Positions 5,111-34,029 of a stretch of 34,453 nt of DNA are shown piece after piece. A program made the translations under genes and the position numbers. The stretch spans positions 192,001 through 226,453 of IMG/VR virus record IMGVR_UViG_3300017991_000049. One strand, written 5' to 3'. Position 1 is the stretch's first letter. Every line of letters begins with the position of its first letter. The notes beneath the pieces are model-generated. The model worked only from the letters and a program-made list of their open reading frames with translations. It was not told the origin of the DNA and made no database searches. The DNA comes from a virus.

Positions 5111-5812
5111 TTAGGGGGCAAACATTAGGATGCCTGTAGCCTCGTCTTTCAGTACCTTCGGTATCATGGCACCCCACGTCCGGCTGTAGCCTATCGGGTC
5201 CATCAAGAACTGCGTCAAAGCAGCAGCCCTATGCGCACGCTCTGCCTCGTGCAACTGCTCCGAATGTGCAATGCAGTATCGGTACAGCGCGGGCAGCTCG
5301 TACATTTTGTTCATGAGAACAAAATTCCAAAGCTGCTGGTCCGTGTAGTCAGGGAAGGCGTTAGCTGCCTCGCCCACACAGCATTCGAACTCCAGCTGGT
5401 ATGACTGCAGTGCTTGCAGCATGCTGTTGTCGGCACGCTTGTTGTAATCCAGGTAGCGCTTCAACGCCTTCGGACCCTTGAACGTCGTCGGGTTTGGTGC
5501 TACCGAAAGCGTCTCGTCCGCCGGCACGCTGTATCTGTACTGGACGTGGATGAACCGCTCGAAATTGCTGATGTCTGCCCGTATCAGCGTCCGTGCGAGG
5601 TCCATCCAGACAGGCGTAACATGCCGCGGGCGCGACATTGCCACTGACTGGCCGTCGACTTGCATCTCGCGCACTTGGCGCTCGCGCATATTGGCCAAAG
5701 CCAGCCGATGCGCAGCAATGTACGTCGGGTCTTGTACTGTCGGCAGCTCTTCGGCCTCCTCAGGTGGAGGAGCCTGCATCTGCGCAGCACGTGGTGGATT
5801 AGAATCCGGCAC
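5111..5812 (-). CDS. hypothetical protein (possible helicase-associated factor)
   Basis: 233-aa ORF between the two helicases. GTG start at 5812 preceded by GAGGA. No recognisable motifs. Confidence 0.5.
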   Translation of the reverse strand: MPDSNPPRAAQMQAPPPEEAEELPTVQDPTYIAAHRLALANMRERQVREMQVDGQSVAMSRPRHVTPVWMDLARTLIRADISNFERFIHVQYRYSVPADETLSVAPNPTTFKGPKALKRYLDYNKRADNSMLQALQSYQLEFECCVGEAANAFPDYTDQQLWNFVLMNKMYELPALYRYCIAHSEQLHEAERAHRAAALTQFLMDPIGYSRTWGAMIPKVLKDEATGILMFAP

Positions 5813-7340
5813 GTCTCGTCCTCATTCCTGGTTGCCAGACCTCGCCGTTAGCGAGCATCTGTGTCCATCCGCGTTTGTGGTATGCCCGCCGCCGATTCAT
5901 GGTGCGGTTCTGGAACTTACTGTCCCAGATGTCGTTCAGATCGATCAGGATGCCAGCTTCCTTACCCGTCTTCGGGTCAACGCGGCATACACGTCCCGGG
6001 ATCTGTACATTGAAGGTATCGCTGTCACCGCCGTCGCCGCGGATCAGCACGTTCAACGAGTCGAAGCTGACGCCCGTGGACCACACGCCGGTGGCTATCA
6101 CGCACATCAGTTCGCGGCGCTCGAATTGCTGTCCGAGCATCACACGCCGCTCTGGCGTCATCAGCTCTTCCGGCGTCAGCAATCCCTGGCGCACATAGCG
6201 CGCGTGCTTGACGCTATCCACAGCGCCTTCAGAGTAGCACAGTGACGCCTCGGGCATTAGCTGCCGCAGATTCAGCGCATGGTCGACTGTGTCCACCAGG
6301 ATCAACACTTGCTGCTGATCCTGTAAGAACGAGCGCGCCGCCTCGACGATCACCTGGTTGCGCCACTGGTTGCGCCAGATGCCATTGCGCTTCTGTGCAA
6401 CCAGCTGCTGCAGGTTCTCGATCGGGTTGATTCCGCCACAGTCGACATCGAGCCACTGGACGTAGACGTGCGACACCAGCCCGCACTCCTCTGCTTGCTG
6501 CTGCGTCATCTGGAAGATACGTGGACCGAAGATGCCCTCCATACGATGGTGGGCGTTGTCCAGACGCATATCCGGCGTGGCAGTGAAGCAGTAGTTACGC
6601 GAGCGCCAGTATTGGCCGAGACGCTCAGCGAGTCTGTCGGTCATCAGCTCGTGAGCCTCATCGGCCAACAAGATGTCGGCGTCGAAGTCCGAGTGGTGCA
6701 GGCTGTCCGCCGTATACACGGTGACGCGCCGATTCTTGTCCTTCTTACCGCCGCCGACCATACCTACGCTGGGAACCCAACGCGTCAGCAGATTCTTGAT
6801 ACGCGTGACCACGTCCTTACGCTTCGTGACGATATCGATCTTCGCGTGTGGATACATGCACGCTACCATTGCCATCACATGCGTCTTACCGAAGGCCGGG
6901 GGCGCGTCGATGAGGCCGCAGTCGTGCATGTCGATCTGCGCGAGGCATTGATCCTGCATCGGTCGTAGCTCAAAGCGCTCGAAGATGCGGTCCCAGTTGG
7001 CCGTGTAGACCTTTTCGGGCTTAGGTTCGTCGTTGTCGACGAAGACCACCTGATAGCCCATTCCAACAAGCAGATCCCGTATTCTGGGATAGAAACCCTT
7101 CTGACAGACGAAACGGCCTTTCGTGTCGTACTGGAAGAGCCTACGCTGCTCGTGCGTGATGTTGTGGCGCCCGCCCGAGAATCGGTCATAGGAGCCAGCA
7201 CCACCGTACTGAAACTTGTTGTGCGTGTAGAATAGCGGCTTTTCGAGGGTGCCGTAGTCGCCGGCTGGCAGCGGCCGAGTGCCGTCTGCGGATACCTCTA
7301 TGAAGGGGCCACCCTTCTTCACGATAGCCTGTTTACCCAT
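5799..7340 (-). CDS. SF2 DEAH-box helicase (UvsW/ResIII-like)
   Basis: Walker A DAPPAFGKTHVMAMVA, DEAH box LLADEAHELMTD, TAT-like FTATPD, and C-terminal helicase motifs. ATG at 7340. Confidence 0.8.
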   Translation of the reverse strand: MGKQAIVKKGGPFIEVSADGTRPLPAGDYGTLEKPLFYTHNKFQYGGAGSYDRFSGGRHNITHEQRRLFQYDTKGRFVCQKGFYPRIRDLLVGMGYQVVFVDNDEPKPEKVYTANWDRIFERFELRPMQDQCLAQIDMHDCGLIDAPPAFGKTHVMAMVACMYPHAKIDIVTKRKDVVTRIKNLLTRWVPSVGMVGGGKKDKNRRVTVYTADSLHHSDFDADILLADEAHELMTDRLAERLGQYWRSRNYCFTATPDMRLDNAHHRMEGIFGPRIFQMTQQQAEECGLVSHVYVQWLDVDCGGINPIENLQQLVAQKRNGIWRNQWRNQVIVEAARSFLQDQQQVLILVDTVDHALNLRQLMPEASLCYSEGAVDSVKHARYVRQGLLTPEELMTPERRVMLGQQFERRELMCVIATGVWSTGVSFDSLNVLIRGDGGDSDTFNVQIPGRVCRVDPKTGKEAGILIDLNDIWDSKFQNRTMNRRRAYHKRGWTQMLANGEVWQPGMRTRRAGF

Positions 7341-7360
7341 TTTTACCCGTAGTGCTGGTA

Positions 7361-7389
7361 TTGACAGCGGACGTACGGGGAGATAGGAT
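7361..7389 (+). promoter_or_regulatory. sigma70-like promoter TTGACA-N17-TAGGAT (plus strand)
   Basis: Perfect -35 TTGACA at 7361-7366, 17-nt spacer, -10 TAGGAT at 7384-7389. Lies in an otherwise minus-strand intergenic region. Confidence 0.5.
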
Positions 7390-7395
7390 CAGACA

Positions 7396-7475
7396 ATTGA
7401 ACCGCCTGACCGACCATATCCCCGTGTGGTCGCGAATCACTTGGAGCCCCGTTCCCGCGGGGCTCCTTTTTTGTT
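7396..7475 (+). ncRNA. candidate small RNA (~80 nt), cis-antisense to the 5' leader of the SF2 helicase operon
   Basis: Predicted from the plus-strand promoter (TSS ~7396) and the plus-strand intrinsic terminator ending ~7474. No coding potential consistent with the genome. Confidence 0.35.
7443..7474 (+). terminator. Rho-independent terminator (plus strand)
   Basis: GGAGCCCCG-ttcccg-CGGGGCTCC: 9-bp perfect GC-rich stem with a 6-nt loop, followed by TTTTTTGTTTG. The opposite strand has no U tract after the hairpin, so it is strand-specific. Confidence 0.65.
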
Positions 7476-7561
7476 TGTATGCCGGCGAGCGCCGGTCTTT
7501 CGACAACAAGAGCCGCATGACGCACACGCGTCACACGGCCGCAGCGCTGTCCAGTTTAGGC

Positions 7562-7590
7562 ATCCTAGCTCTCCACAAGATGGCTGTCAA
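7562..7590 (-). promoter_or_regulatory. sigma70-like promoter TTGACA-N17-TAGGAT (minus strand) driving the helicase-to-polymerase operon
   Basis: On the minus strand: TTGACA (plus 7590-7585), 17-nt spacer, TAGGAT (plus 7567-7562). Hexamers are identical to the plus-strand promoter 200 bp away. The two promoters are convergent. Confidence 0.5.
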
Positions 7591-7668
7591 CGGCGGTCTT
7601 GGCGGTATGCACTGGTTCCTACATTTTGTACCGCGCACGGCTGGAATACACCATATATGCGGGTCAAA

Positions 7669-8703
7669 TCAGATCATGTTTGTTGCGATCTGGTGCAGCT
7701 CGTACGCTGCCTTCTCCGTCTGGTGATGGAAGAAGTCCGTCGGACGGAATAGCGGGCACTGCTGCTCAGGTGTCGCAGCGGATTCACGATACAGCTCGCT
7801 CAGCCACGTGTGGCGGAGGAACGCGATAAACCGCTGCGAGCCCCGCAAATCAGCCATGACTGGATCGCCCTCGGGCGCGTTCGGATCGCCTAGGCCAAGC
7901 TTGCGGCCCCATGTCCTCCAGCAGAAATCCCACGGGGCCATGCCCACCAGGTCGCTGCCCTCGACAGGATGCGGCGCGCCAAGCTCATAGCGATAGCGCA
8001 CCTTCTGCTCGGCTGCTCTGTTCTTCCAGCAGTTCAGCACGACCTTGCAGCGTTTGTGGTGCCGCCACGGTTCGCGTGTGCCGTACACGCCGGCCTGCGT
8101 TCGTGGGTTCAAGCCCAGCCACGCTTCCAGCTTGCCGAGACGATCTGGTGCGCACTGGTCTATGTACCAGCGCGGGTCCAGTATGTACGACAGCAGTCCT
8201 GCCACCGACAGTTTGTTGAGTGACTGGATGAACGATAGCGGACGCCACGCAGGATGGCCACGCAGCAGCTGCAAGACATCCACCTCAACTTCTTCGCCGT
8301 GGAGCACACTCTTCGACAGTGCGACTGCCAGGGCATAGGAGCGATAGTCGGACTCGACGACTTCGTGGAAACCACCCAAGCTGGGCGCTCGTGTGAAATC
8401 CCGCATAGCCAACAACATAGCTTCGGGGTTACGGCGATGCTTTTCAATACGCCCGACCAATGGCGTGCATACCTGCACGCTTTGCAGCTTGTCTTTCTGT
8501 TTGAGGTCGTACAACTGCGTGATCAATCTGGCGTTAGCGCACGTGCCTACTAACTGCACGCTATCCGCGCGCGTGAAGGCAGCGCTCTCGAGAAACGCTT
8601 CTGGAGACTCGCCAGAGCATCGCGTGGCGTAGTCTCCGTCGGCATACCAGATCTTTCCGCAGTGCGTATGCAGTTTCATTGTCAATGTGTCGATCGCTCT
8701 CAT
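7669..8703 (-). CDS. hypothetical protein, translationally coupled to sbcC
   Basis: 344-aa ORF. Its ATG at 8703 overlaps the SbcC stop (ATGA). No recognisable motifs. Confidence 0.5.
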   Translation of the reverse strand: MRAIDTLTMKLHTHCGKIWYADGDYATRCSGESPEAFLESAAFTRADSVQLVGTCANARLITQLYDLKQKDKLQSVQVCTPLVGRIEKHRRNPEAMLLAMRDFTRAPSLGGFHEVVESDYRSYALAVALSKSVLHGEEVEVDVLQLLRGHPAWRPLSFIQSLNKLSVAGLLSYILDPRWYIDQCAPDRLGKLEAWLGLNPRTQAGVYGTREPWRHHKRCKVVLNCWKNRAAEQKVRYRYELGAPHPVEGSDLVGMAPWDFCWRTWGRKLGLGDPNAPEGDPVMADLRGSQRFIAFLRHTWLSELYRESAATPEQQCPLFRPTDFFHHQTEKAAYELHQIATNMI

Positions 8704-10835
8704 GCAGCTGGCAGTTCGATTGTGTTGTCAAAATGGTGCGATATCCGCGGTTCGTGTGTAACGAACAGCACCTGCAGCCCGCGCTCATGCGACAGGTCAC
8801 GCAGGCGCTCCAGCGCACGCGGCAAGCTGTCGAGGTTGTGCTCGTCCAGGCCTGCTGTGGGCTCGTCCATAATCAGTACACCAACCTGACCCGCGAAGGT
8901 CGAATTGACGGTGATCCGAAATGCCATCGCAAGTACGATGCGCTCGCCGATCGATAGTCGTCGGTCGGGCTGCACCCGCACGCCGTCAAGGAACCTGGCT
9001 GTGAAACCTAGGCTCTCGTCCATCTCCACGCGGAAAGGCGCTTCGAACATGGAGAGCGCTTCGTTCACCTGTTCTAGCATCATTTCCACGTAGGTGTAGG
9101 ACACCATCCGCGGCGCTTCGTTGCGATGAAACACGCTACGCACGTCGGTCAGGTGCTGCACTACCTCACGGGTCTTCTGTCCTTGAGCCAACGTCTTGCG
9201 AACGTTCTCAATCTGCTCTTGGACAGCAACGCGCTTTGCGTGTGCAAGCGCACGCTCGCGTGTAAACTGCTCCAGTTGCCGTTGCTTGGCCAGTATATCG
9301 GCGTTGGCTGCTTGCGCCTCGTCATGCTGCGCCTTGGTGTGCCACGGCTGTAACGCGTTGTGGGCGTCCTGGGCCTGCTGCAGCGCCTCAGCGAGCTGCT
9401 TACACTCGCCTTCCAGTGAGGACAGCTGCAGGGCCTTACTGGTCTTCTCAGCTTGAACCTGCTGCAAAGCTTCCTGGAAATGCGAACGCTCGTTCAGCGT
9501 CTTTTGAACTTCCTCTTCGGAGGTCTCGGGCGGGCTACACGCTTCGATCGCCAGACGTCGTCCTTCCAGCTGACGCTGGTCAGACGCCTTGTGCTTCATC
9601 TGCACGATGTATGCAGAGTCAGCCCTGTCATACACGTCCCACGTGTCCCTCCGCAGCCGTAGCGGCGGCATCTGCGCCTGTATCGCCGCCAGCTCGTCCT
9701 CCAACTCGGCCTTGCGCTGGGCGCGCTCGTTCGCGCCGGGCATCTTCTGGCCGCATGTAGGACAGGTATCCGCCTGGCCCATGTCCAGCAGATTGATACG
9801 AATATTACCACACGTATCTTCGAGGTACTTCAGCTGCTGCGCCTCCTCGTCGCTCAGGCGTGGCTCTGGTGGCTGCACCGGCGCGACTGTGTTCTCCCAC
9901 GTAGCTTTGAACGTAGCTTCGTCACGCTCAAGTGCAGCCCGCGTGGCTGCAGCAGCATGGTGGGCTTTCCACTGATCGCGTGCCTCCTCGGCGTCTGCAC
10001 AGTCCGGCGCAATCGCGGCTAGCCCAGCTTCAAGGTCGGCTATTGCGGCGTCCAAGTCACGTAGCGGTTCAGCCGCCGCTTTGGCTGCAGCCTCTTTGGC
10101 AGTGTACCGCCCCTGCAGCTCTTCGACGCGCGCCATCGCCTGGCGTTCGTCGTTGTACTGCTGGATCAACGTCTGGTTGGCATGCAGCTCAGTCTCCGGA
10201 TGCTCTGGCAGCTCCAGCGCAGCAATGTTGGCGTCCGCACCGGCGATAGCCTCGTCGTGCGTAGCCGCTTGATCATTCAGCTCGTCCTCCGTCAGCAGCG
10301 ACGTCGGAATCTCGATGGCGCTGACGAACTTACCCAGCTGCTCGTACACGCGCTCGGCGTGCGCCACGCCGAACAGTGCCGCCAAGGAAGCGGCCCGCTC
10401 TGCCGGCGGTTGGTCAAACATCTCGTCGATCTTGCGCTGGCGCACAAAGATGTAGTCGGCGATCTGCTTCTTGGTGGCGCCCAGTCTGCCCCACAGTTCG
10501 GAATTGATCTCGCCTACCGACGTCCACCGCGCATCGTCGATGGTCAGCAGATTGGTAGTACCCTGCAAAGCACGACGGACATGCATCCGCGCGCCGTAGT
10601 GTATCAACCAAGCTTCGACGAAGGCTTCTGCGTTACCTGGCGTACCCTGACGGATATCGTCGGCCTTCTTGCGCTCACCGCCGGCGTCGCCGATCAGTGC
10701 AAGCTGTATGGCGCGCAAGATGTTGGTCTTACCAGCGCCGTTCGGGCCAACGAGCATGTTGAGCCCAGGAGTCAGCTCGAGAGTTAGATCCTCGTGCTGG
10801 CAGAAATTCGCTAGGTGGAGTCGTTCTATGATCAT
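8700..10835 (-). CDS. sbcC: SbcC/Rad50-like SMC-family ATPase
   Basis: N-terminal Walker A MLVGPNGAGKTNIL. Long coiled-coil with zinc-hook CPTCGQ. C-terminal signature LSIGERIVLAMAF, Walker B VLIMDEPTAGLDE, H-loop LFVTHE. Confidence 0.85.
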   Translation of the reverse strand: MIIERLHLANFCQHEDLTLELTPGLNMLVGPNGAGKTNILRAIQLALIGDAGGERKKADDIRQGTPGNAEAFVEAWLIHYGARMHVRRALQGTTNLLTIDDARWTSVGEINSELWGRLGATKKQIADYIFVRQRKIDEMFDQPPAERAASLAALFGVAHAERVYEQLGKFVSAIEIPTSLLTEDELNDQAATHDEAIAGADANIAALELPEHPETELHANQTLIQQYNDERQAMARVEELQGRYTAKEAAAKAAAEPLRDLDAAIADLEAGLAAIAPDCADAEEARDQWKAHHAAAATRAALERDEATFKATWENTVAPVQPPEPRLSDEEAQQLKYLEDTCGNIRINLLDMGQADTCPTCGQKMPGANERAQRKAELEDELAAIQAQMPPLRLRRDTWDVYDRADSAYIVQMKHKASDQRQLEGRRLAIEACSPPETSEEEVQKTLNERSHFQEALQQVQAEKTSKALQLSSLEGECKQLAEALQQAQDAHNALQPWHTKAQHDEAQAANADILAKQRQLEQFTRERALAHAKRVAVQEQIENVRKTLAQGQKTREVVQHLTDVRSVFHRNEAPRMVSYTYVEMMLEQVNEALSMFEAPFRVEMDESLGFTARFLDGVRVQPDRRLSIGERIVLAMAFRITVNSTFAGQVGVLIMDEPTAGLDEHNLDSLPRALERLRDLSHERGLQVLFVTHEPRISHHFDNTIELPAA

Positions 10836-11591
10836 TTACTTTCCATTGCGCTGGCGTGCGCGGGTTGTGTCTACTTTCCTGCTGGCACGCGTTTCGTCAT
10901 GGTCAAGTTCGAATATGTCGAGGGCGCCGCGGATCTCGGACCAGATCTTCTGCAGCTGCCCGTGGGAGCCACAGCCGGCGATTTGGTCCTCGAACAGCGC
11001 TACATCGTCTTCCAGCTTCTTGAGCTTCTTGCCGACGGGGTCTTCGCGGATGAGCGCCGTCAGTTGGCGCTTGCAGTGATCCCGCATTATGTTTGTCGCA
11101 GTGCCGGGATAGCGGTCGAAGGTGCCCTCGTCCTCGTCCTCGTCCTCGTTGCTGTGGTAGCGCCGATAGTTGTTGCGGCGATTGACATGGCTTTGCTGCA
11201 TGTCGGCCGATGGCAGGTCGGCGCGCTTACGCCCCTGCATCTTCTCGACTACGCCACCTTCCAATTCGCGGATCGCTGTATCGAGCTTGTCGCGCTCTTC
11301 ACGCAGGTCTTCCAGATCGACCATCATGTTTTCGACGCCAAAGTGCTCCTCGATGAGCCTCTGGGCCTCTACTACCAAGTCGCGTTTCCAAGTCGGCTTT
11401 TCGGCCTGAATCTGGTCGCGCAATTCCTGGGCACGGCTATCCAGCCGGTCCCGAAAGTGTTGCTTCTCGCTTACTGTCAGTCCCATAAAGTCGGTCTTTG
11501 TATATTCGAAGTAATTCTGTTTGGATGTCACGTGTTCCTGCCAAGCTGACGGCGTCTTCGCAGACGGCTGTAGGCTCAGCGTAGAACTCAC
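10836..11591 (-). CDS. hypothetical acidic coiled-coil protein inserted between sbcD and sbcC
   Basis: 251-aa ORF with GTG start. Contains a DEDEDEDE run and is predicted helical. Overlaps the sbcD 3' end by 155 nt unless it starts at the internal ATG at 11486 (50-nt overlap) or at 11327. Confidence 0.45.
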   Translation of the reverse strand: MSSTLSLQPSAKTPSAWQEHVTSKQNYFEYTKTDFMGLTVSEKQHFRDRLDSRAQELRDQIQAEKPTWKRDLVVEAQRLIEEHFGVENMMVDLEDLREERDKLDTAIRELEGGVVEKMQGRKRADLPSADMQQSHVNRRNNYRRYHSNEDEDEDEGTFDRYPGTATNIMRDHCKRQLTALIREDPVGKKLKKLEDDVALFEDQIAGCGSHGQLQKIWSEIRGALDIFELDHDETRASRKVDTTRARQRNGK

Positions 11592-12576
11592 GGATGCAGC
11601 CGGCTAGGCCGTCGTTCAGCACTACCTGAACGCGCCGCGCCGTATCGACTGCAACCTGCGCACTCTCCACAGGTACCGCCTTGAGGAACAGGTGCGCATC
11701 GCCTGTGACACGCGCCTCTATCCGCTCTCTGGCCTCCGGAACATCTTCCCTGTACCAGACACGGATTATGTTCGCAGACACGGACGCCGGAACGCCCACC
11801 TTCGGTATCCTCGCAGGATGCTGCCGCCAGCTGTCAATGAAAGCGTCCAGGTCTTCCTGGTCATTGATTCTGGCTTCGTAGTAGCCGCGTGTATGCAGCT
11901 GCACAGCCTCGGCCGTCAGATCGTCGTTCAGTATGAAAACGTTCTTTGTATGCGGCTCGCCGATATTCTGCATGCAGATCGATCCAGGCGAGATGATGCG
12001 CTGTTGTCCGCGCGTCTCGTCGATCGTCACATGGAAATCGCCGGTGAGGATGCAACGTGGAGACTTGGCCCAATGGAACCATGCGTCTCCGCGATCTTCG
12101 CCCATGAAGTCCATCCACACCTGGTGTGTGGCTAGGATATCGACGCCTTCCGGAACTGCCTCCAGCGCGGCGCGTACTTCATTGGGTGACTTGTAGTCCA
12201 GTCCGTAGATCCGGAGTCCAGTGCCTGGTATTTCCACCAGCTGCTCGTTGATATGCAGCGGATGTAGATGTAAGGCATGCAACAACGGCGGTGTTGACCG
12301 CTCGTGCTGGCCCTGCACGTACAGTACCTTGCGACCCTGCTGCTGGAACGTATCCAACGCCGAGCGCATCGTCTGCAGCGCATCCGATTGCTGTAGCTTC
12401 TGCTCGAATAGGTCGCCGAGCAGGATCACGTACGGAACATCATACGTATCCGCTATCTCGCAGATCTGTTTGATGCTCCACGCCGTATCCCCGCATAGGG
12501 TGTCCCGGCGGCTCCAAACACGGTCGTGTTTGCGCACATGCCAGTCTCCAGTTGCGAGCGCAATCGGCTTAGCCAT
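11437..12576 (-). CDS. sbcD: SbcD/Mre11-like nuclease (calcineurin-like metallophosphoesterase)
   Basis: N-terminus MAKPIALATGDWHV, ILLGDLFEQ, and further phosphoesterase motifs. AGGAGA SD before the ATG at 12576. Confidence 0.85.
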   Translation of the reverse strand: MAKPIALATGDWHVRKHDRVWSRRDTLCGDTAWSIKQICEIADTYDVPYVILLGDLFEQKLQQSDALQTMRSALDTFQQQGRKVLYVQGQHERSTPPLLHALHLHPLHINEQLVEIPGTGLRIYGLDYKSPNEVRAALEAVPEGVDILATHQVWMDFMGEDRGDAWFHWAKSPRCILTGDFHVTIDETRGQQRIISPGSICMQNIGEPHTKNVFILNDDLTAEAVQLHTRGYYEARINDQEDLDAFIDSWRQHPARIPKVGVPASVSANIIRVWYREDVPEARERIEARVTGDAHLFLKAVPVESAQVAVDTARRVQVVLNDGLAGCIREFYAEPTAVCEDAVSLAGTRDIQTELLRIYKDRLYGTDSKREATLSGPAG

Positions 12577-12960: not shown

Positions 12961-12989
12961 TTGCCTCGTTTGGGCGAAAAGGGTATACT
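12961..12989 (+). promoter_or_regulatory. sigma70-like promoter for csrA (TTGCCT-N17-TATACT)
   Basis: -35 TTGCCT at 12961-12966, 17-nt spacer, -10 TATACT at 12984-12989. Followed by AAGGAGG and the csrA ATG at 13019. Confidence 0.55.
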
Positions 12990-13018: not shown

Positions 13019-13198
13019 ATGATGCTGGTTCTTTCTCGCAAGACCGGTCAAAGAATACTGATCGGTGACGACATCACTGTTACGCTAGTACGCGTCGACG
13101 GTGACACGGTGCGTATCGGTATCGAGGCGCCTGAGACTGTGCGGATTCTCCGCGAAGAGCTCAAAAAGAAGCAACCTCGACAACCTGTAGCGCATTAG
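13019..13198 (+). CDS. csrA: CsrA/RsmA-family carbon storage regulator (RNA-binding translational regulator)
   Basis: 60-aa product MMLVLSRKTGQRILIGDDITVTLVRVDGDTVRIGIEAPETVRILREEL. It aligns with canonical CsrA ([48 protein letters not shown]) across almost its full length. Strong SD AAGGAGG. Lone plus-strand gene among minus-strand genes. Confidence 0.85.
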   Translation: MMLVLSRKTGQRILIGDDITVTLVRVDGDTVRIGIEAPETVRILREELKKKQPRQPVAH

Positions 13199-13487
13199 CG
13201 ATATCCGCAAAGAGTCGCTTCTTAGCGCATACTGCCAGCTTATGGGCCTGGGACACGCTCACGCAACGCACTGATTCGCGCTGCCCTGCTGCCTGTCCAC
13301 GGCCCGAGGCTGGCCAGTAGTCCGCCAGGTGTTTATCGCCGTACTTGAAACGCCAATGCTGGTCGTTGTCGCTCAGCGTGACAGTGATCTGCTCGAAGGC
13401 AAGCTCGCTCTGGAGCATTTCCAGTTCAGCTGTTGCTGACTGGAGCCGCTGTTTGCGGATCTGCTTCTTCTTGCTCATCTGCTGCAC
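13161..13487 (-). CDS. hypothetical small protein (doubtful)
   Basis: 108-aa ORF. Overlaps the hldE 3' end by 62 nt and is convergent with csrA, overlapping it by 38 nt. Lys-rich N-terminus. An internal ATG at 13418 would remove the overlap. Confidence 0.3.
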   Translation of the reverse strand: MQQMSKKKQIRKQRLQSATAELEMLQSELAFEQITVTLSDNDQHWRFKYGDKHLADYWPASGRGQAAGQRESVRCVSVSQAHKLAVCAKKRLFADIANALQVVEVASF

Positions 13488-14919
13488 AGGCTTTCGCGCG
13501 GATGTCGGTCGCGTGCGTATCGAACTCGAGCGTCGTCGTCATGATACGGCCGCCGACCTCCTCCATCGTCAGCGCTTCTGGAATCCGATCGGTCTTGCCG
13601 GCGTGCTCGGGGCCCTTGAACAGGACCGTCGGTACCAGATTGTGGATAAGTGACTTGGGTGTGTCTTCGTCGAACTTGATGATCGCATCGACGCACGGTA
13701 GCGCTGCCAAACTCGCGGCACGCGTGGCGTAGTCGTTGATCGGCTTGCTCTTGATGCGGGCGGCCGACTCGTCCGAATTCAACATGACGAGTAGGAAATC
13801 GCACTCTTTGCGCGCCTGCTCCAGCATGGAGACATGCCCAGGATGCATCAGATCGAAAACACCGTTGGCTACGCCGAAGTCGCCGCCGCTGACCATCATG
13901 GATGCGCGCAGCAGCATAGCAAAAGGCAGCTCTATCTTCTTGAGCTGATTGCCAGATACAATGGTCAGCCGCCTGTGTATCTGGTGCAGTGACACCGCGG
14001 ATGCGCCAGGGCGCTCTACCTGTATCGCTGCGGCCGTTGCTGCAAAGTGCAACATGGGCATCAAAGACATATCGGCAGCGACGCCATAGGTGAACGCTGC
14101 AGCAACAGTGTCGCCAGCACCGCACGAGTCGACCGCTAGTGCTGGCACAGCTGGCATCTCGGACGGCGTCTCGTTCGGGCGCACTATGAGCATACCGGCA
14201 GCGCCACGCGTCACGATGCAATGCACAGCGTGCAGTTCCTTGCAGACCGCCATAGCCGCCGAGCGTACGTCAGCAATCCGCGGGTCGGCGACTGCCGCAA
14301 GCACCTCATGCTCATTGGGCGTAATGATATGCGCACCACGATAGTGAAGCATATGCTTCGGCGTCGGGTCTACGACCACCGGTACTTTGTGTGCGCGCGC
14401 ATACTCGAAGATGACCTGGAGCGTACGCTCCGTGCAAATACCTTTGTCGTAGTCGGACACAAGGATCGCAAGTGGTTTCGCGTCGTCGACACACTTCATG
14501 AACATGTCGACCACCTTGTCCTCGACATTGGCCTTCGGGCGTGCGTCTATGTCGAAGCGAGCTACCAGACTGTCAGCTGCGTACACGCGGTGTTTGCAGG
14601 GCGTTTGGTAGTTCTTATCCGTGGCTACATACCGCGTCAGCAGCTCCGGTAGTTCCATGTTCAAGAAGTTCCGGCCGGCGGTGTCATCGCCTACGACGCT
14701 TACGAACGCCGTGGGCATCGCCATATGTACGAGATTGGCCATCGCGTTGGCGGCACCGCCCAAGCCAAGGAAGGGCGTACCAGGTGGCACGTCTATGACG
14801 GGAACTGCAGCGGTTTGGTCAAGCTGCTTCACCGTTCCCATGTAGTAGTGGTCCATAAGCACAGGTCCGACTACGACCACGCGGTCGCCTTCATCCTGTG
14901 CTGGGTGATTCGTCGTCAA
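13426..14919 (-). CDS. hldE: Bifunctional HldE/RfaE-like D-beta-D-heptose-7-phosphate kinase / heptose-1-phosphate adenylyltransferase
   Basis: N-terminal pfkB/ribokinase-like domain: VVVVGPVLMDHYY...GLGGAANAMANL and DSCGAGDTV. C-terminal cytidylyltransferase domain with HxGH motif: ANGVFDLMHPGHVSML...LNSDES...KFDEDTP...LFKG. Collinear with E. coli HldE over both domains. TTG start at 14919 preceded by GGAGAG. Confidence 0.85.
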   Translation of the reverse strand: MTTNHPAQDEGDRVVVVGPVLMDHYYMGTVKQLDQTAAVPVIDVPPGTPFLGLGGAANAMANLVHMAMPTAFVSVVGDDTAGRNFLNMELPELLTRYVATDKNYQTPCKHRVYAADSLVARFDIDARPKANVEDKVVDMFMKCVDDAKPLAILVSDYDKGICTERTLQVIFEYARAHKVPVVVDPTPKHMLHYRGAHIITPNEHEVLAAVADPRIADVRSAAMAVCKELHAVHCIVTRGAAGMLIVRPNETPSEMPAVPALAVDSCGAGDTVAAAFTYGVAADMSLMPMLHFAATAAAIQVERPGASAVSLHQIHRRLTIVSGNQLKKIELPFAMLLRASMMVSGGDFGVANGVFDLMHPGHVSMLEQARKECDFLLVMLNSDESAARIKSKPINDYATRAASLAALPCVDAIIKFDEDTPKSLIHNLVPTVLFKGPEHAGKTDRIPEALTMEEVGGRIMTTTLEFDTHATDIRAKACAADEQEEADPQTAAPVSNS

Positions 14920-26960: not shown

Positions 26961-27532
26961 TCGCAGTAGCCCTTAGACTTGCCCCAAGCGGCGCAGGTCT
27001 TCGACATACTGTTGTTCGCATGAAACCAGTCACGCGCCCAATCCCAGTCGTCGTTGACCAGCGTGGCAAAGTCATGCTCGTTGAGTTCGATGACCGTATC
27101 AGTGGTCAGCTCCAACATGCGGATCACGCGGTCGTAGTCGGCCACATGGTTCGCCGGCGGCCACGCGCGGATGTCCACGCGGATAGCTTTGCCGTCGCGC
27201 AGCTTCTGCGCCTCGCCTTCGAGCTTCTCTGCGGTCTTGGCGCAGAAGCCGGCAAGCGCTTCGTCGCGCATGGTTATATGCTGCTCTCGGTTCTTCCGAA
27301 CGATATCAAGCAGCTTGTCACGTTCCATCGTGCATTTGATGTCCAAGGTAAATCTCCGATACGTGTCGAAACGTGCGCGCGCCAGGCCTTGTGTGTTGCC
27401 TATCGACCCGCCCATCGTTTCATATGCGTAGAATTCCAGCTTGTAGCGCGGCCCCCGAATATACATTTCGGCCGGGAGCCGCGCGCCTGGTATGCTGAAT
27501 GCGCCGTAGCGATTAGGCGTTGACCAGTTCAT
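26957..27532 (-). CDS. hypothetical protein
   Basis: 191-aa ORF immediately downstream of ligA, overlapping it by 20 nt. Confidence 0.5.
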   Translation of the reverse strand: MNWSTPNRYGAFSIPGARLPAEMYIRGPRYKLEFYAYETMGGSIGNTQGLARARFDTYRRFTLDIKCTMERDKLLDIVRKNREQHITMRDEALAGFCAKTAEKLEGEAQKLRDGKAIRVDIRAWPPANHVADYDRVIRMLELTTDTVIELNEHDFATLVNDDWDWARDWFHANNSMSKTCAAWGKSKGYCE

Positions 27533-29618
27533 TGAACTCGTCTTCGGTCAGGATGGTGACATCCAGTTGCCGCGCCTTAGTCAGCTTGCTGCCGGCATCT
27601 GCGCCGGCCACGAGATAGTCGGTCTTGCCCGAGACACTGCTCGAAGCTTTGCCGCCAGCATCCTTGATGGCTTGTTTGATGCCATCGCGGGTGTAGCCGA
27701 CGAGCTTGCCAGTCGCGCAGATGTTCTTGCCGTCCAGCGGACGTGGTCCGGCTGGCACTACCTCTGGCGGGGGATCGCCCATGCCCGTGTTGACGCCCCA
27801 GGTACGGAAGTCTTCCAGGAGCTGTCTGTTCCCGTCATGGGCCAGCCAGTCTTCAAGACTTGCAGCCGTCTCCTTACCTATCCCCTCCAGCTCGCTCAGA
27901 CTATCTGCGCTCCACGAATTGCCCAACTCCACAAAAACGTCGACTGGCTTGCCGGCGCGCGCAACCACGGCCTTGCAAATCAGCTCGGAATTGGTCCGCC
28001 CGACGTGCTTGATGTTGAGCGACGCCATCAGGCGCCACGAGGGACGCGTAGCAGCCTCGTCTATGGCCGCCAGGAGCTTTTTCGACTTCCCAGGCGTCAA
28101 ACCCGGAATGGCCCCAGAATCGGCGTCTACGGTGTCGTAGAGGCACCATAGATCGGCCAGGCTTGTGAGCAGCCCACCAACTTCGCCGTTGTAATCCTCC
28201 GCCATCATCGCCTGGACGGCCTTGGGACCGAGTCCGTCGATATCCAGGCGGCTGCGGTCGGCAGCTGCGAGGATTACGGCTTCTAGCTGGGCTGGGCAGC
28301 CTGCGGTGTTTGTGCAGGACACGAGGGGACCATCGCGCACGGTGTTGGCCTCGCAGACCGGGCACTTCTCGGGCGGCTTGAACTTCCGCGGCCGTCCGGT
28401 GCGCTTGCCCGTGTGTACCCGCACCAGGTGGGGTATGATCTTCCCCGCCTTCTCCAGCGTCACAGTGTCCCCGATGCGGGGGTCCAACCGTTCGACCTCG
28501 TCGAAGTTGAACAGGGTGCTCTTCTGTACCGTAGTCTCAGCGATCTCGACGGGCTCGTAGTAGGCGACAGGCGTCAGCGTTCCTTGCTTACCGACCTGCG
28601 TCTCGAGCCGTACGATCTTGGTTTCAGCCTCATATCGCTCCCATTTGTAGGCCATGGCCCACGAAACGTGGCGCGATGAAACAGAGCCCATTGTTTCACG
28701 ATCGCTGAAACAGTCCAGTTTCAGCACGATCCCGTCGACCGGAATATCAAGACCGTTGATCACGGCGACCATCTGCTCGATCTGCTTGCGCGCGACTGGA
28801 TACGTCAGCGGGTTCATAGTCTCGCAGTTGCTCGGAATGCCCATCAGATGCAGCGCGTACATCGTCTCAACGAATGAGTCGTTGTAGTAGTCCGGATCGA
28901 ACTGGCCGACGCCATGCGCTATGAAGTGCAGCTTGCGCTTCCAGCATTCCTTAGGGTCGTGCTGCCGCAATGCGCCCGACGCCGCGTTTCTGGAGTTCTT
29001 GAAGGGTTCCTCGCCGGCCTTCTCCTGCGCGTCCACCAGCGCGGCGAAGGCCGAGTTGGGGATATAGACCTCGCCGCGGACCTCCACGGTGCCGTCAACT
29101 TTGATCACATGATCATTTTTCGGCAGGTCGTCTCGGACGAGGCGTTCCAGCTTGCGCGGGATACCGCGGATCGACATGGCATTGTGGGTGATGTCATCAC
29201 CCTTCTTGCCGTCGCCGCGGGTCACAGCGCGCGTCAGTACACCGTCGACGTAGATCAGGCTGATGGCGCAGCCATCGACCTTCCAGTCGGCGCTATATAC
29301 CGGGCCTTTCTTGAGCTTATGCGACGCACGGACGTGGAACTTGTCCAACGCATCCACGTCAAAACCGTTGTCGATCGAGAGCATCGACACAGCGTGCTTG
29401 ACGGATTTCAGCCCAGCGATGGGCTCGCCGCCGACACGTTGCGTGGGACTCTTCGGGTCAGCGAATTCCGGATTCTCGGCTTCCAGACGCTGCAGCTCCT
29501 TGAACTGCTTGTCGTAGAACGCATCCGAGACGACCGATTCGCTGTATGTGTAGTACATACGGTCCCATTCTGCGATCGCGTCGCGGAGTTCTTCAATCTG
29601 TGTCCTTACGTCAGGCAT
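27513..29618 (-). CDS. ligA: NAD-dependent DNA ligase (LigA)
   Basis: N-terminal Ia domain (EWDRMYYTYSESVVSDAFYD). Adenylation KxDG motif WKVDGCAIS. OB, Zn-finger (CPVC...C..C) and HhH regions. C-terminal BRCT (TGKLVGYTRDGIKQAIKDAGGKASSSVSGKTDYLVAG). SD AGGAGGGG. Confidence 0.9.
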   Translation of the reverse strand: MPDVRTQIEELRDAIAEWDRMYYTYSESVVSDAFYDKQFKELQRLEAENPEFADPKSPTQRVGGEPIAGLKSVKHAVSMLSIDNGFDVDALDKFHVRASHKLKKGPVYSADWKVDGCAISLIYVDGVLTRAVTRGDGKKGDDITHNAMSIRGIPRKLERLVRDDLPKNDHVIKVDGTVEVRGEVYIPNSAFAALVDAQEKAGEEPFKNSRNAASGALRQHDPKECWKRKLHFIAHGVGQFDPDYYNDSFVETMYALHLMGIPSNCETMNPLTYPVARKQIEQMVAVINGLDIPVDGIVLKLDCFSDRETMGSVSSRHVSWAMAYKWERYEAETKIVRLETQVGKQGTLTPVAYYEPVEIAETTVQKSTLFNFDEVERLDPRIGDTVTLEKAGKIIPHLVRVHTGKRTGRPRKFKPPEKCPVCEANTVRDGPLVSCTNTAGCPAQLEAVILAAADRSRLDIDGLGPKAVQAMMAEDYNGEVGGLLTSLADLWCLYDTVDADSGAIPGLTPGKSKKLLAAIDEAATRPSWRLMASLNIKHVGRTNSELICKAVVARAGKPVDVFVELGNSWSADSLSELEGIGKETAASLEDWLAHDGNRQLLEDFRTWGVNTGMGDPPPEVVPAGPRPLDGKNICATGKLVGYTRDGIKQAIKDAGGKASSSVSGKTDYLVAGADAGSKLTKARQLDVTILTEDEFNELVNA

Positions 29619-33610: not shown

Positions 33611-34016
33611 CCGGCAATCGCTCCTTAATGAACCGCAGGATCTCAGCCCCTACCGCATCCCAGTCGAAGTATGGCCGACGGCCGTCCTCTGGGAAGATCA
33701 GCGGAGCGCCAGCTGCGGCGTCGTCGATGTAGTAGTGCGCGTATGCCTTGTTCGAAGTCGTCCAAGGTTGCGGGTTCTCATTCAGCAGATCGAACTCGAC
33801 GCCGACCGATTCGCAGTAATCGACAGCCTCGGTCAGCACACTGCCTTCTACCTGATTGTCGCTCCGCATGGTCCAGAGGATGAGGGTCGCCCCTGCTTCC
33901 TTGAACTTCTTCAACCACTCCAGCGCCTGCGGCACGGGTGGGCCAACATCGGGGAATCGATGCTCTACGATCGTGCCGTCGAAGTCGACGGCGATATACA
34001 CCTTACGTCCTGGCAT
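33597..34016 (-). CDS. HAD-superfamily phosphatase
   Basis: ATG at 34016 with an AGGA SD. VYIAVDFDGTIV (motif I DxDGT). The ORF track extends to 34076. Confidence 0.55.
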   Translation of the reverse strand: MPGRKVYIAVDFDGTIVEHRFPDVGPPVPQALEWLKKFKEAGATLILWTMRSDNQVEGSVLTEAVDYCESVGVEFDLLNENPQPWTTSNKAYAHYYIDDAAAGAPLIFPEDGRRPYFDWDAVGAEILRFIKERLPDGGT

Positions 34017-34029
34017 TTTGTTCCTGTGA

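Follow-up and report, generated by a model that had tools for sequence, protein, structure and literature searches.

A conserved candidate antisense small RNA gene in the leader of a phage replicative helicase mRNA

A Predicted Antisense Transcription Unit Upstream of a Phage Helicase Gene

The stretch of DNA analyzed here (34,453 nucleotides (nt), positions 192,001 to 226,453 of IMG/VR record IMGVR_UViG_3300017991_000049; hereafter the window) is part of a 226-kb metagenomic contig, and is treated as DNA from a large uncultivated phage. In the gap 7341-7668, which is flanked, as a first-pass annotation had it, by two minus-strand genes, the plus strand carries a promoter-like element, a short body and an intrinsic terminator. 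On the sequence evidence presented below, this unit (7361-7472) is very probably a functional transcription unit, that is, a small RNA (sRNA) gene, directed against the 5′ leader of the mRNA of a DNA helicase. The antisense RNA of about 80 nt that the first-pass annotation had predicted from the promoter and the terminator gained strong support from the fixed position of the unit in relatives, from covariation in its stems and from conservation well above the near-neutral level of third codon positions. Judged by these comparisons, it is a new, family-conserved phage cis-antisense sRNA, which would be unusual in that its promoter spacer doubles as the anti-Shine-Dalgarno (anti-SD) element of its target. 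The conservation of promoter, body and terminator, together with two alternative leader pairings that are both specific to cognate partners, is observed in silico; from these patterns we infer the production of either RNA, the direction of the regulation and its physiological role. The features of the locus are as follows.

5799-7340, minus strand: SF2 DNA helicase gene (Pfam ResIII and Helicase_C, PHROG 16), the presumed regulated target
7669-8703, minus strand: gene for a protein of 344 amino acids (aa), on the other flank of the gap 7341-7668
7361-7389, plus strand: predicted sRNA promoter, with -35 TTGACA (7361-7366), 17-nt spacer and -10 TAGGAT (7384-7389); predicted start at about A7396
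7396-7472, plus strand: predicted antisense sRNA of about 77 nt, made up of a 5′ ACCGCC region, hairpin H1, a single-stranded GCGAAUCACUU linker and the terminator
7412-7431, plus strand: hairpin H1 (GACCAUAU-CCCC-GUGUGGUC), with a C-rich loop at 7420-7423
7443-7472, plus strand: predicted intrinsic terminator of the sRNA, a 10-pair stem at 7443-7466 (8 G-C, 4-nt loop) followed by T6 at 7467-7472
7562-7590, minus strand: predicted sense promoter of the helicase leader, TTGACA-17-TAGGAT; predicted start at about 7555
7341-7555, minus strand: predicted 5′ leader of the helicase mRNA, highly structured (minimum free energy of -100.9 kcal/mol, z-score of -5.8)

The two promoters share TTGACA-N17-TAGGAT exactly as had been claimed (plus strand, 7361-7389; minus strand, 7590-7562), with 10 of 12 positions agreeing with the sigma-70 consensus in either case. 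This exact pair of hexamers occurs only twice in the 34,453 bases, compared with 0.01 occurrences expected from shuffled sequences; the search for further copies that the annotation had proposed, run within the window, gave no third one, and only one other sigma-70-like site with 10 of 12 matches was found there (29686-29657). The terminator at 7443-7472 ranked as the best terminator-like site of the whole window. The annotated plus-strand-only terminator between the two promoters was borne out, with a 10-pair stem and a T6 run ending at 7472; because on the minus strand no T-run comes after it, the hairpin 7443-7466 is not called a terminator in that direction. The predicted sRNA folds with a z-score of -4.8, and by its geometry it is perfectly complementary to the helicase mRNA 5′ leader between about -56 and -132.

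We also considered the coding potential of the gap. The plus-strand open reading frames (ORFs) 7352-7726 and 7426-7752 had been dismissed as coding sequence, and we likewise find them not credible as genes because they cross the terminator, the sense promoter and a segment (7478-7615) without homology in relatives. None of the ORFs of 63/64 aa across the gap is conserved in the relatives, and a 25-codon sense upstream ORF of the window is not conserved either, since it is interrupted or has no start codon in relatives L012 and L013. With ARAGORN, no transfer RNA or transfer-messenger RNA was detected in the window. All 4227 Rfam families were likewise without a match in the window at gathering thresholds, and a permissive scan gave ncS54 (RF02871; 25.5 bits against a threshold of 43) and Hrs13 (RF02631; 19.3 bits against 52) as the best candidates. 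Both resemble the predicted sRNA in having a hairpin and then a U-tailed terminator, and Hrs13 also aligns the C-rich loop; because these sub-threshold matches are driven by the generic terminator, we do not regard the sRNA as a member of either family.

The Unit Is Conserved in Relatives at a Fixed Position

Regions upstream of the helicase gene were gathered from relatives, and their opposite strand was scanned for TTGAC[ACGT]-N16-18-TAnnnT. About 20 distinct relatives from metagenomes and IMG/VR, belonging to about 13 sequence groups and with helicases 47-76% identical, carry the sRNA unit, with TTGAC[AC]-N16-18-TAnnnT placed 18-31 nt from the helicase ATG; the chance rate of such a promoter was estimated as about 0.003 per locus for a 60-nt window. 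This antisense promoter was present in all examined relatives with a helicase identity of at least about 47%, except L020 and L031, and was missing from all those with 45% or less. In all 20 distinct sequences, a body of about 40-60 nt and then a GC-rich hairpin with a T-rich tail come next, and the stem of this hairpin differs in sequence between lineages with the hairpin and the T-run being kept.

A covariance model (R1) built from the sequences of 12 relatives matched the window at 7397-7472 with 82.6 bits. R1 found exactly one copy in each relative locus, in every case ahead of the helicase gene and on the opposite strand, and no second copy in the window. By blastn, homology to the relatives spans 7301-7477 and 7616-7800, and the part between them is without match. 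Compensatory changes were found in 10 of the 19 pairs of both sRNA helices, where 83.8% of the alignment cells were paired as compared to at most 52% when the partners were slid; of these pairs, 4 of 9 belong to helix 1 (H1; 85.8% of cells paired) and 6 of 10 to the terminator. We take this covariation as supporting and not as decisive, because the alignment leans towards R1. In the closest group, identity was 72-88% in the sRNA body and 64-84% in the promoter/untranslated region, compared with 52-58% at third codon positions of the helicase gene, which points to purifying selection on the sRNA sequence. The C-rich stretch in the sRNA was kept in nearly all relatives.

Alternative Pairings in the Helicase Leader

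The leader features to which the following pairings refer are given below.

7416-7425, minus strand: G-rich upstream arm (sense ACGGGGAUAU), the proposed anti-anti-SD; complement of the C-rich loop of the sRNA
7374-7384, minus strand: C-rich element (sense AUCUCCCCGUA), the proposed anti-SD; within the sRNA promoter spacer and the edge of its -10 hexamer
7338-7351, minus strand: helicase translation start, with SD-like UACGGG at 7351-7346 and AUG at 7340-7338
7354-7368, minus strand: small leader hairpin GCUG-UCAAUAC-CAGC (sense), which encloses the complement of the -35 hexamer

Conservation is unusually high in the spacer of the antisense promoter, which carries a fixed G-rich motif, TACGG[GA] or [GT]CAGG[GA], just upstream of the -10 hexamer; sense-promoter spacers do not have this motif. 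On the helicase mRNA it reads as a C-rich stretch (UCUCCCCGUA in the window), which can pair with the SD (CCCGUA with UACGGG in the window) or alternatively with the upstream arm at 7425-7416, with which it forms inverted repeat I2 (7375-7384 and 7416-7425). Both sides of the anti-SD/SD pairing are changed in L008 (CCGUG/CACGG), L024 (CCCAGC/GCUGGG), L025 (UCCUGCA/UGCAGGA) and L037 (CCCUGCG/CGUAGGG). The small leader hairpin is invariant in the closest group, and different self-complementary pairs (e.g., GUCGGU/ACCGAC and UGGUC/GACCA) take its place in other groups.

In order to assess the specificity of these pairings, each element was paired with its own partner and with partners from other groups, using 20000 permutations. 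The pairing of anti-SD with SD was cognate-specific (z = -4.9), none of the 20000 permutations giving a sum at or below that observed. The pairing of the upstream arm with the anti-SD was also cognate-specific (z = -3.3; 24 of 20000), and the sRNA body paired directly with the SD gave a z of -2.1 (454 of 20000).

That the sRNA pairs slightly better with the cognate than with non-cognate helicase SDs would also fit an RNA acting in trans, whose C-rich loop and 5′ ACCGCC would serve as an anti-SD seed for phage or host mRNAs, with Hfq perhaps binding the U-tail and the A/U linker, and whose place next to the helicase gene would be retained synteny. Its primary sequence is conserved, with the C-rich stretch in nearly all relatives; hairpin, single-stranded linker and U-tailed terminator are typical of such RNAs, and the weak resemblance to Rfam families reflects this architecture. 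We nevertheless consider a trans-acting role improbable. When both strands of the window were scanned by RNAduplex no target stood out, the best non-self site (-40 kcal/mol, within the helicase coding sequence, about 4 standard deviations from the mean of 13,766 windows) falling within the background tail. Moreover, the tight distance from promoter to ATG and the use of the spacer as a leader element argue for coupling to the helicase.

The leader itself shows a long hairpin, examined in a MAFFT alignment of seven close relatives, in which 80.4% of positions were paired compared to at most 46% when slid; 7 pairs were compensatory, a count that was reached by 8 of 500 shuffles, and invariant G-U pairs are present that are possible on the sense strand only. 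The SD-sequestering helix was 78% paired in the same seven relatives, compared to at most 50% when slid. An attempt to assign the strand by folding energy failed, and the excess of G-U over A-C (30:10) was suggestive at most.

These sense-specific G-U pairs would be expected if the structured sense leader were the main element, as a translational operator or as a processing hairpin for RNase III, with the plus-strand unit being secondary, for example a read-through insulator or a weakly used unit. Also consistent with such a role is that the sense strand of the region folds no worse than the sRNA strand, and that among the three pairings the one sequestering the SD has the best support. A sense-strand element, however, needs neither a TTGAC[AC]-N17-TAnnnT on the opposite strand nor a T-run, and both are kept in all 20 module-carrying distinct relatives, so that we judge this explanation to be quite improbable.

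A Model for Leader Refolding by the sRNA

We tentatively favor a model, to which we would give slightly less than an even chance, in which a constitutive cis-antisense sRNA refolds the leader and thereby lowers helicase translation. In the free leader, the G-rich upstream arm (ACGGGGAUAU...) would pair with the C-rich element (...UCUCCCCGUA), a sequence that the spacer of the sRNA promoter itself encodes, to give a long hairpin with SD and AUG accessible. The sRNA would bind the upstream arm, the first contact being probably loop to loop between its CCCC and the GGGG of the complementary leader hairpin; the freed C-rich element would then pair with the SD/AUG region, and helicase translation would fall. 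Given a constitutive sRNA promoter with output proportional to dosage, the outcome would be a negative feedback on the synthesis of replication proteins as in plasmid copy-number control, and collisions of convergent RNA polymerases may add to the effect. Simple occlusion of the ribosome-binding site (RBS) is unlikely, and refolding fits better, because about 55 nt separate the sRNA from the ATG and the site itself is not covered.

Each leader was folded free and then with the sRNA-complementary part forced to be single-stranded, and the accessibility of positions -15 to +3 was determined. In the window, predicted SD accessibility decreased from 0.67 in the free leader to 0.29 with the sRNA target masked, and none of 60 shuffled upstream arms opened the SD as well as the native arm did. 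Over the 20 relatives mean accessibility went from 0.44 to 0.35, with lower values in 17 of the 20. The native arm outperformed its shuffles (at most 5% of which reached the native value) in the window and in L013, L021, L024, L025, L037 and L059; accessibilities in L059 were all 0.29, so that the effect there is negligible.

Several observations weigh against this model or against the sRNA as its agent. A clear drop in accessibility (at least 0.1) was predicted for only 8 of the 20 relatives; in about half of the relatives folding predicts a sequestered SD whether the sRNA is present or not, and in about half of them the native arm opens the SD no better than shuffled arms. The SD-sequestering stem barely varies within the closest group, its support coming from the comparison between groups, and the pair counts come from alignments that had been fitted to the tested structures or derived from them. 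The sRNA body folds no better on its own strand than on the sense strand (summed energies of -200 vs. -239 kcal/mol), and sense-leader structure rather than the sRNA could drive the conservation of the body. Finally, the module is degenerate or absent in L020, despite a helicase identity of 60%, in L031 and in all relatives with 45% identity or less. Refolding thus has good support in the window and is plausible across the family, but thermodynamics alone does not make it general.

The relatives in which no sRNA-dependent change of the SD is predicted would be accommodated by plain cis-antisense control, where a long duplex of sRNA and leader would be cut by a double-strand-specific enzyme such as RNase III, destabilizing the helicase mRNA or splitting it from the upstream cistron, or where convergent transcription would interfere. 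The near-consensus convergent promoters, the perfect complementarity given by geometry and the conserved arrangement all suit such a mechanism, by which the known phage antisense RNAs lambda OOP (on cII) and P22 sar (on ant) act (PMC12197685). On the other hand, it would leave unexplained why the spacer shows cognate-specific complementarity both to the SD and to the target arm of the sRNA, and a purely cis duplex does not need conservation of primary sequence. We regard plain cis-antisense control as rather unlikely, and retain leader refolding as the working model.

Comparison With Plasmid and Phage Antisense RNAs

In several plasmid systems (Inc RNA of ColIb-P9 and RNAI of IncB, which act on an activator pseudoknot, and attenuation in pT181 and pIP501), a constitutive antisense RNA, proportional to plasmid dosage, binds a stem-loop in the rep leader. 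In these plasmids, antisense binding blocks a long-range interaction of G-rich and C-rich sequences near the RBS that is needed for rep translation. The triad of upstream arm, anti-SD and SD proposed here formally follows the same logic as in the ColIb-P9/IncB plasmids. It differs from them in that a nested hairpin is predicted in place of the pseudoknot, a conserved (repY-like) leader peptide is lacking, the helicase is not an initiator and the replicon is that of a phage; furthermore, the anti-SD would be encoded by the spacer of the antisense promoter itself. It is a speculative possibility, and on balance an unlikely one, that a clade of large, lytic-type phages uses plasmid-style copy-number logic, with a dosage-proportional sRNA flipping an anti-anti-SD/anti-SD/SD switch that gates helicase translation, and with the sRNA promoter and the translational operator of its target being one co-evolving sequence. 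If the refolding model is true, antisense-driven leader refolding, known from plasmid copy-number control, would also govern phage replication proteins.

Cis-antisense RNAs with their own promoter and terminator, such as lambda OOP, P22 sar and lambda aQ, are well known in phages (PMC12197685). Few phage-encoded regulatory RNAs are known overall, nearly all of them from model temperate phages of enterobacteria (PMC12197685), whereas the present locus would provide a family-wide, sequence-conserved sRNA gene at the head of a replisome block in large uncultivated phages (contigs up to 226 kb). The nearest in layout is lambda OOP, an RNA of 77 nt transcribed from promoter pO between cII and the replication gene O, which likewise has its own sigma-70 promoter and intrinsic terminator and runs against the main rightward operon, to whose transcript it is complementary, just upstream of replication genes (PMC12197685). 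OOP, however, reaches into the 3′ end of the cII coding sequence and causes the cII mRNA to be degraded in an RNase III-dependent manner; the sRNA predicted here lies wholly within a non-coding leader, about 55 nt from the helicase start codon. No sequence or Rfam relationship between the two was found, and the present sRNA belongs to a large uncultivated phage whose window contains no sign of a lysis-lysogeny module. The locus resembles P22 sar (Pant/Psar) in its facing promoters and in a small antisense RNA that starts inside the leader of its target, but sar covers the ant RBS and the present sRNA stops short of the SD; there is no sequence relationship to sar either.

Since both promoters are near the sigma-70 consensus, the switch could be rebuilt in E. 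coli without the host. If the refolding model is true, the locus would be a compact natural riboregulator part. Model R1 could serve as the seed of a new RNA family.

The Sense Promoter and a Variable Cassette

A sigma-70-like sense promoter (TTGAC[N]-N16-18 with a TAnnnT-type -10) was found upstream in 18 of 21 module-carrying relatives, located at -181 to -250 where no extra gene is present and at about -620 to -770 where there is one. In most relatives the sense promoter first precedes this extra gene, which encodes a protein of about 145-170 aa without a Pfam match and ends just before the sRNA terminator (e.g., 3406-3876 in L005); it is lacking in the window and in L008, L013 and L019. 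The first-pass annotation had described a switch placed at the entry to the replication operon. The antisense relation to the leader is supported, with a caveat on the placement: because the sense promoter first drives the gene of about 150 aa in most relatives, the sRNA lies there in an intercistronic leader and not at the operon entry.

The relatives also keep a consensus-like sense promoter upstream, and the convergent arrangement is therefore considered ancestral. Neither promoter departs far from consensus among the relatives, with -10 hexamers that vary (TAGGAT, TATCAT, TACTAT, TAAGAT), and because of this variation the identity of the hexamer pairs in the window is probably incidental. 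The nonamer ACAAAATGY occurs three times in the window compared to 0.35 expected, always on the minus strand (7621-7629, 5302-5310 and 34013-34021). In the window, L013 and L019 a conserved copy precedes the sense -35 hexamer by about 25-35 nt; the motif might serve as a promoter specific to the phage or bind a regulator.

The segment 7478-7615, which contains the sense promoter and two hairpins, has no homology in any relative, and three independent assemblies of this phage (L002, L003, L004) end at about 7608-7610, at the edge of this cassette. We read these breaks as strain polymorphism at the cassette boundary. The two hairpins are the following.

7511-7540, minus strand: 13-bp hairpin with a weak U-rich tail, lineage-specific, about 15 nt 3′ of the predicted sense start
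7482-7495: small GC hairpin CCGGC GAGC GCCGG, lineage-specific

The 13-bp hairpin looks like a terminator or an attenuator; read as 7540-7511, it intervenes between the sense promoter and the sRNA region, where the sRNA hairpin itself is no minus-strand terminator. The second small GC hairpin that had been annotated does exist, but at 7482-7495 and not at 7470-7486.

Genomic Context of the Helicase Gene

The helicase gene heads a block of helicase, DnaB-like helicase, primase and PolA genes; 3′ of it follow a gene for a protein of 233 aa, the DnaB-like helicase gene, a primase-like gene and a gene for a UDG-exonuclease-PolA fusion. A location directly upstream of helicase, primase and polymerase genes, together with a large imperfect palindrome and convergent promoters, would also be compatible with a replication origin or a primer-RNA gene, at which transcription would activate or prime DNA synthesis near the replisome genes. 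This we consider very improbable. The site has neither iterons nor an AT-rich unwinding element, its direct repeats being two weak pairs; GC content is about 0.58, cumulative GC skew runs monotonically through the window without an inflection around 7.4 kb, the flanking genes are all on the same strand, and the RNA ends at an efficient-looking terminator. For lambda OOP, a comparable role as a primer was once proposed and later given up (PMC12197685).

Searches by megablast and tblastn against 50,697 phage records gave, as the only match to a cultured relative, one of 24% to Verrucomicrobia phage P8625, and no relative of the window was found among the 185,579 species genomes searched. Helicase homologues number in the hundreds in metagenomes. 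A scan of IMG/VR with a single protein gave no matches; an alignment-based scan worked, identifying several related contigs (up to 195 kb) as IMG/VR viral genomes, yet it added 0 new distinct sRNA sequences. Among the helicase homologues, P0021, P0060 and P0064 (650-820 aa) contain Hint/intein Pfam domains (PF07591, PF14890, PF01079), an indication of inteins in this family of helicases.

Other Genes of the Phage

A homologue of CsrA of 58 aa (Pfam CsrA, E = 2e-23) is encoded at 13022-13198 on the plus strand, a rare plus-strand gene in a block of minus-strand genes, and a promoter-like TTGCCT-17-TATACT (12961-12989, plus strand) lies just upstream of it. As the phage encodes CsrA, a role of the sRNA as a CsrA sponge was considered and rejected, because neither the sRNA nor the leader loop shows conserved GGA motifs.

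Several further genes lie on the minus strand. An NAD-dependent DNA ligase is encoded at 27513-29618 (PHROG 3869, E = 1e-153). An SbcC-like ATPase gene adjoins that of a metallophosphoesterase which may be SbcD-like (8700-10835 and 11437-12576). Within the replication region, a 497-aa HldE-like bifunctional protein (13426-14919) combines a PfkB sugar kinase with a cytidylyltransferase-like domain, and may serve sugar-nucleotide synthesis for the modification of DNA or surface. The UDG-exonuclease-PolA protein has 1073 aa in L001 (15020-18241) and is split into 990 and 122 aa in the strain variants L002 (5288-9441) and L003 (5290-9443) by a gene for an HNH endonuclease of 235 aa, an insertion that looks like a mobile homing endonuclease.

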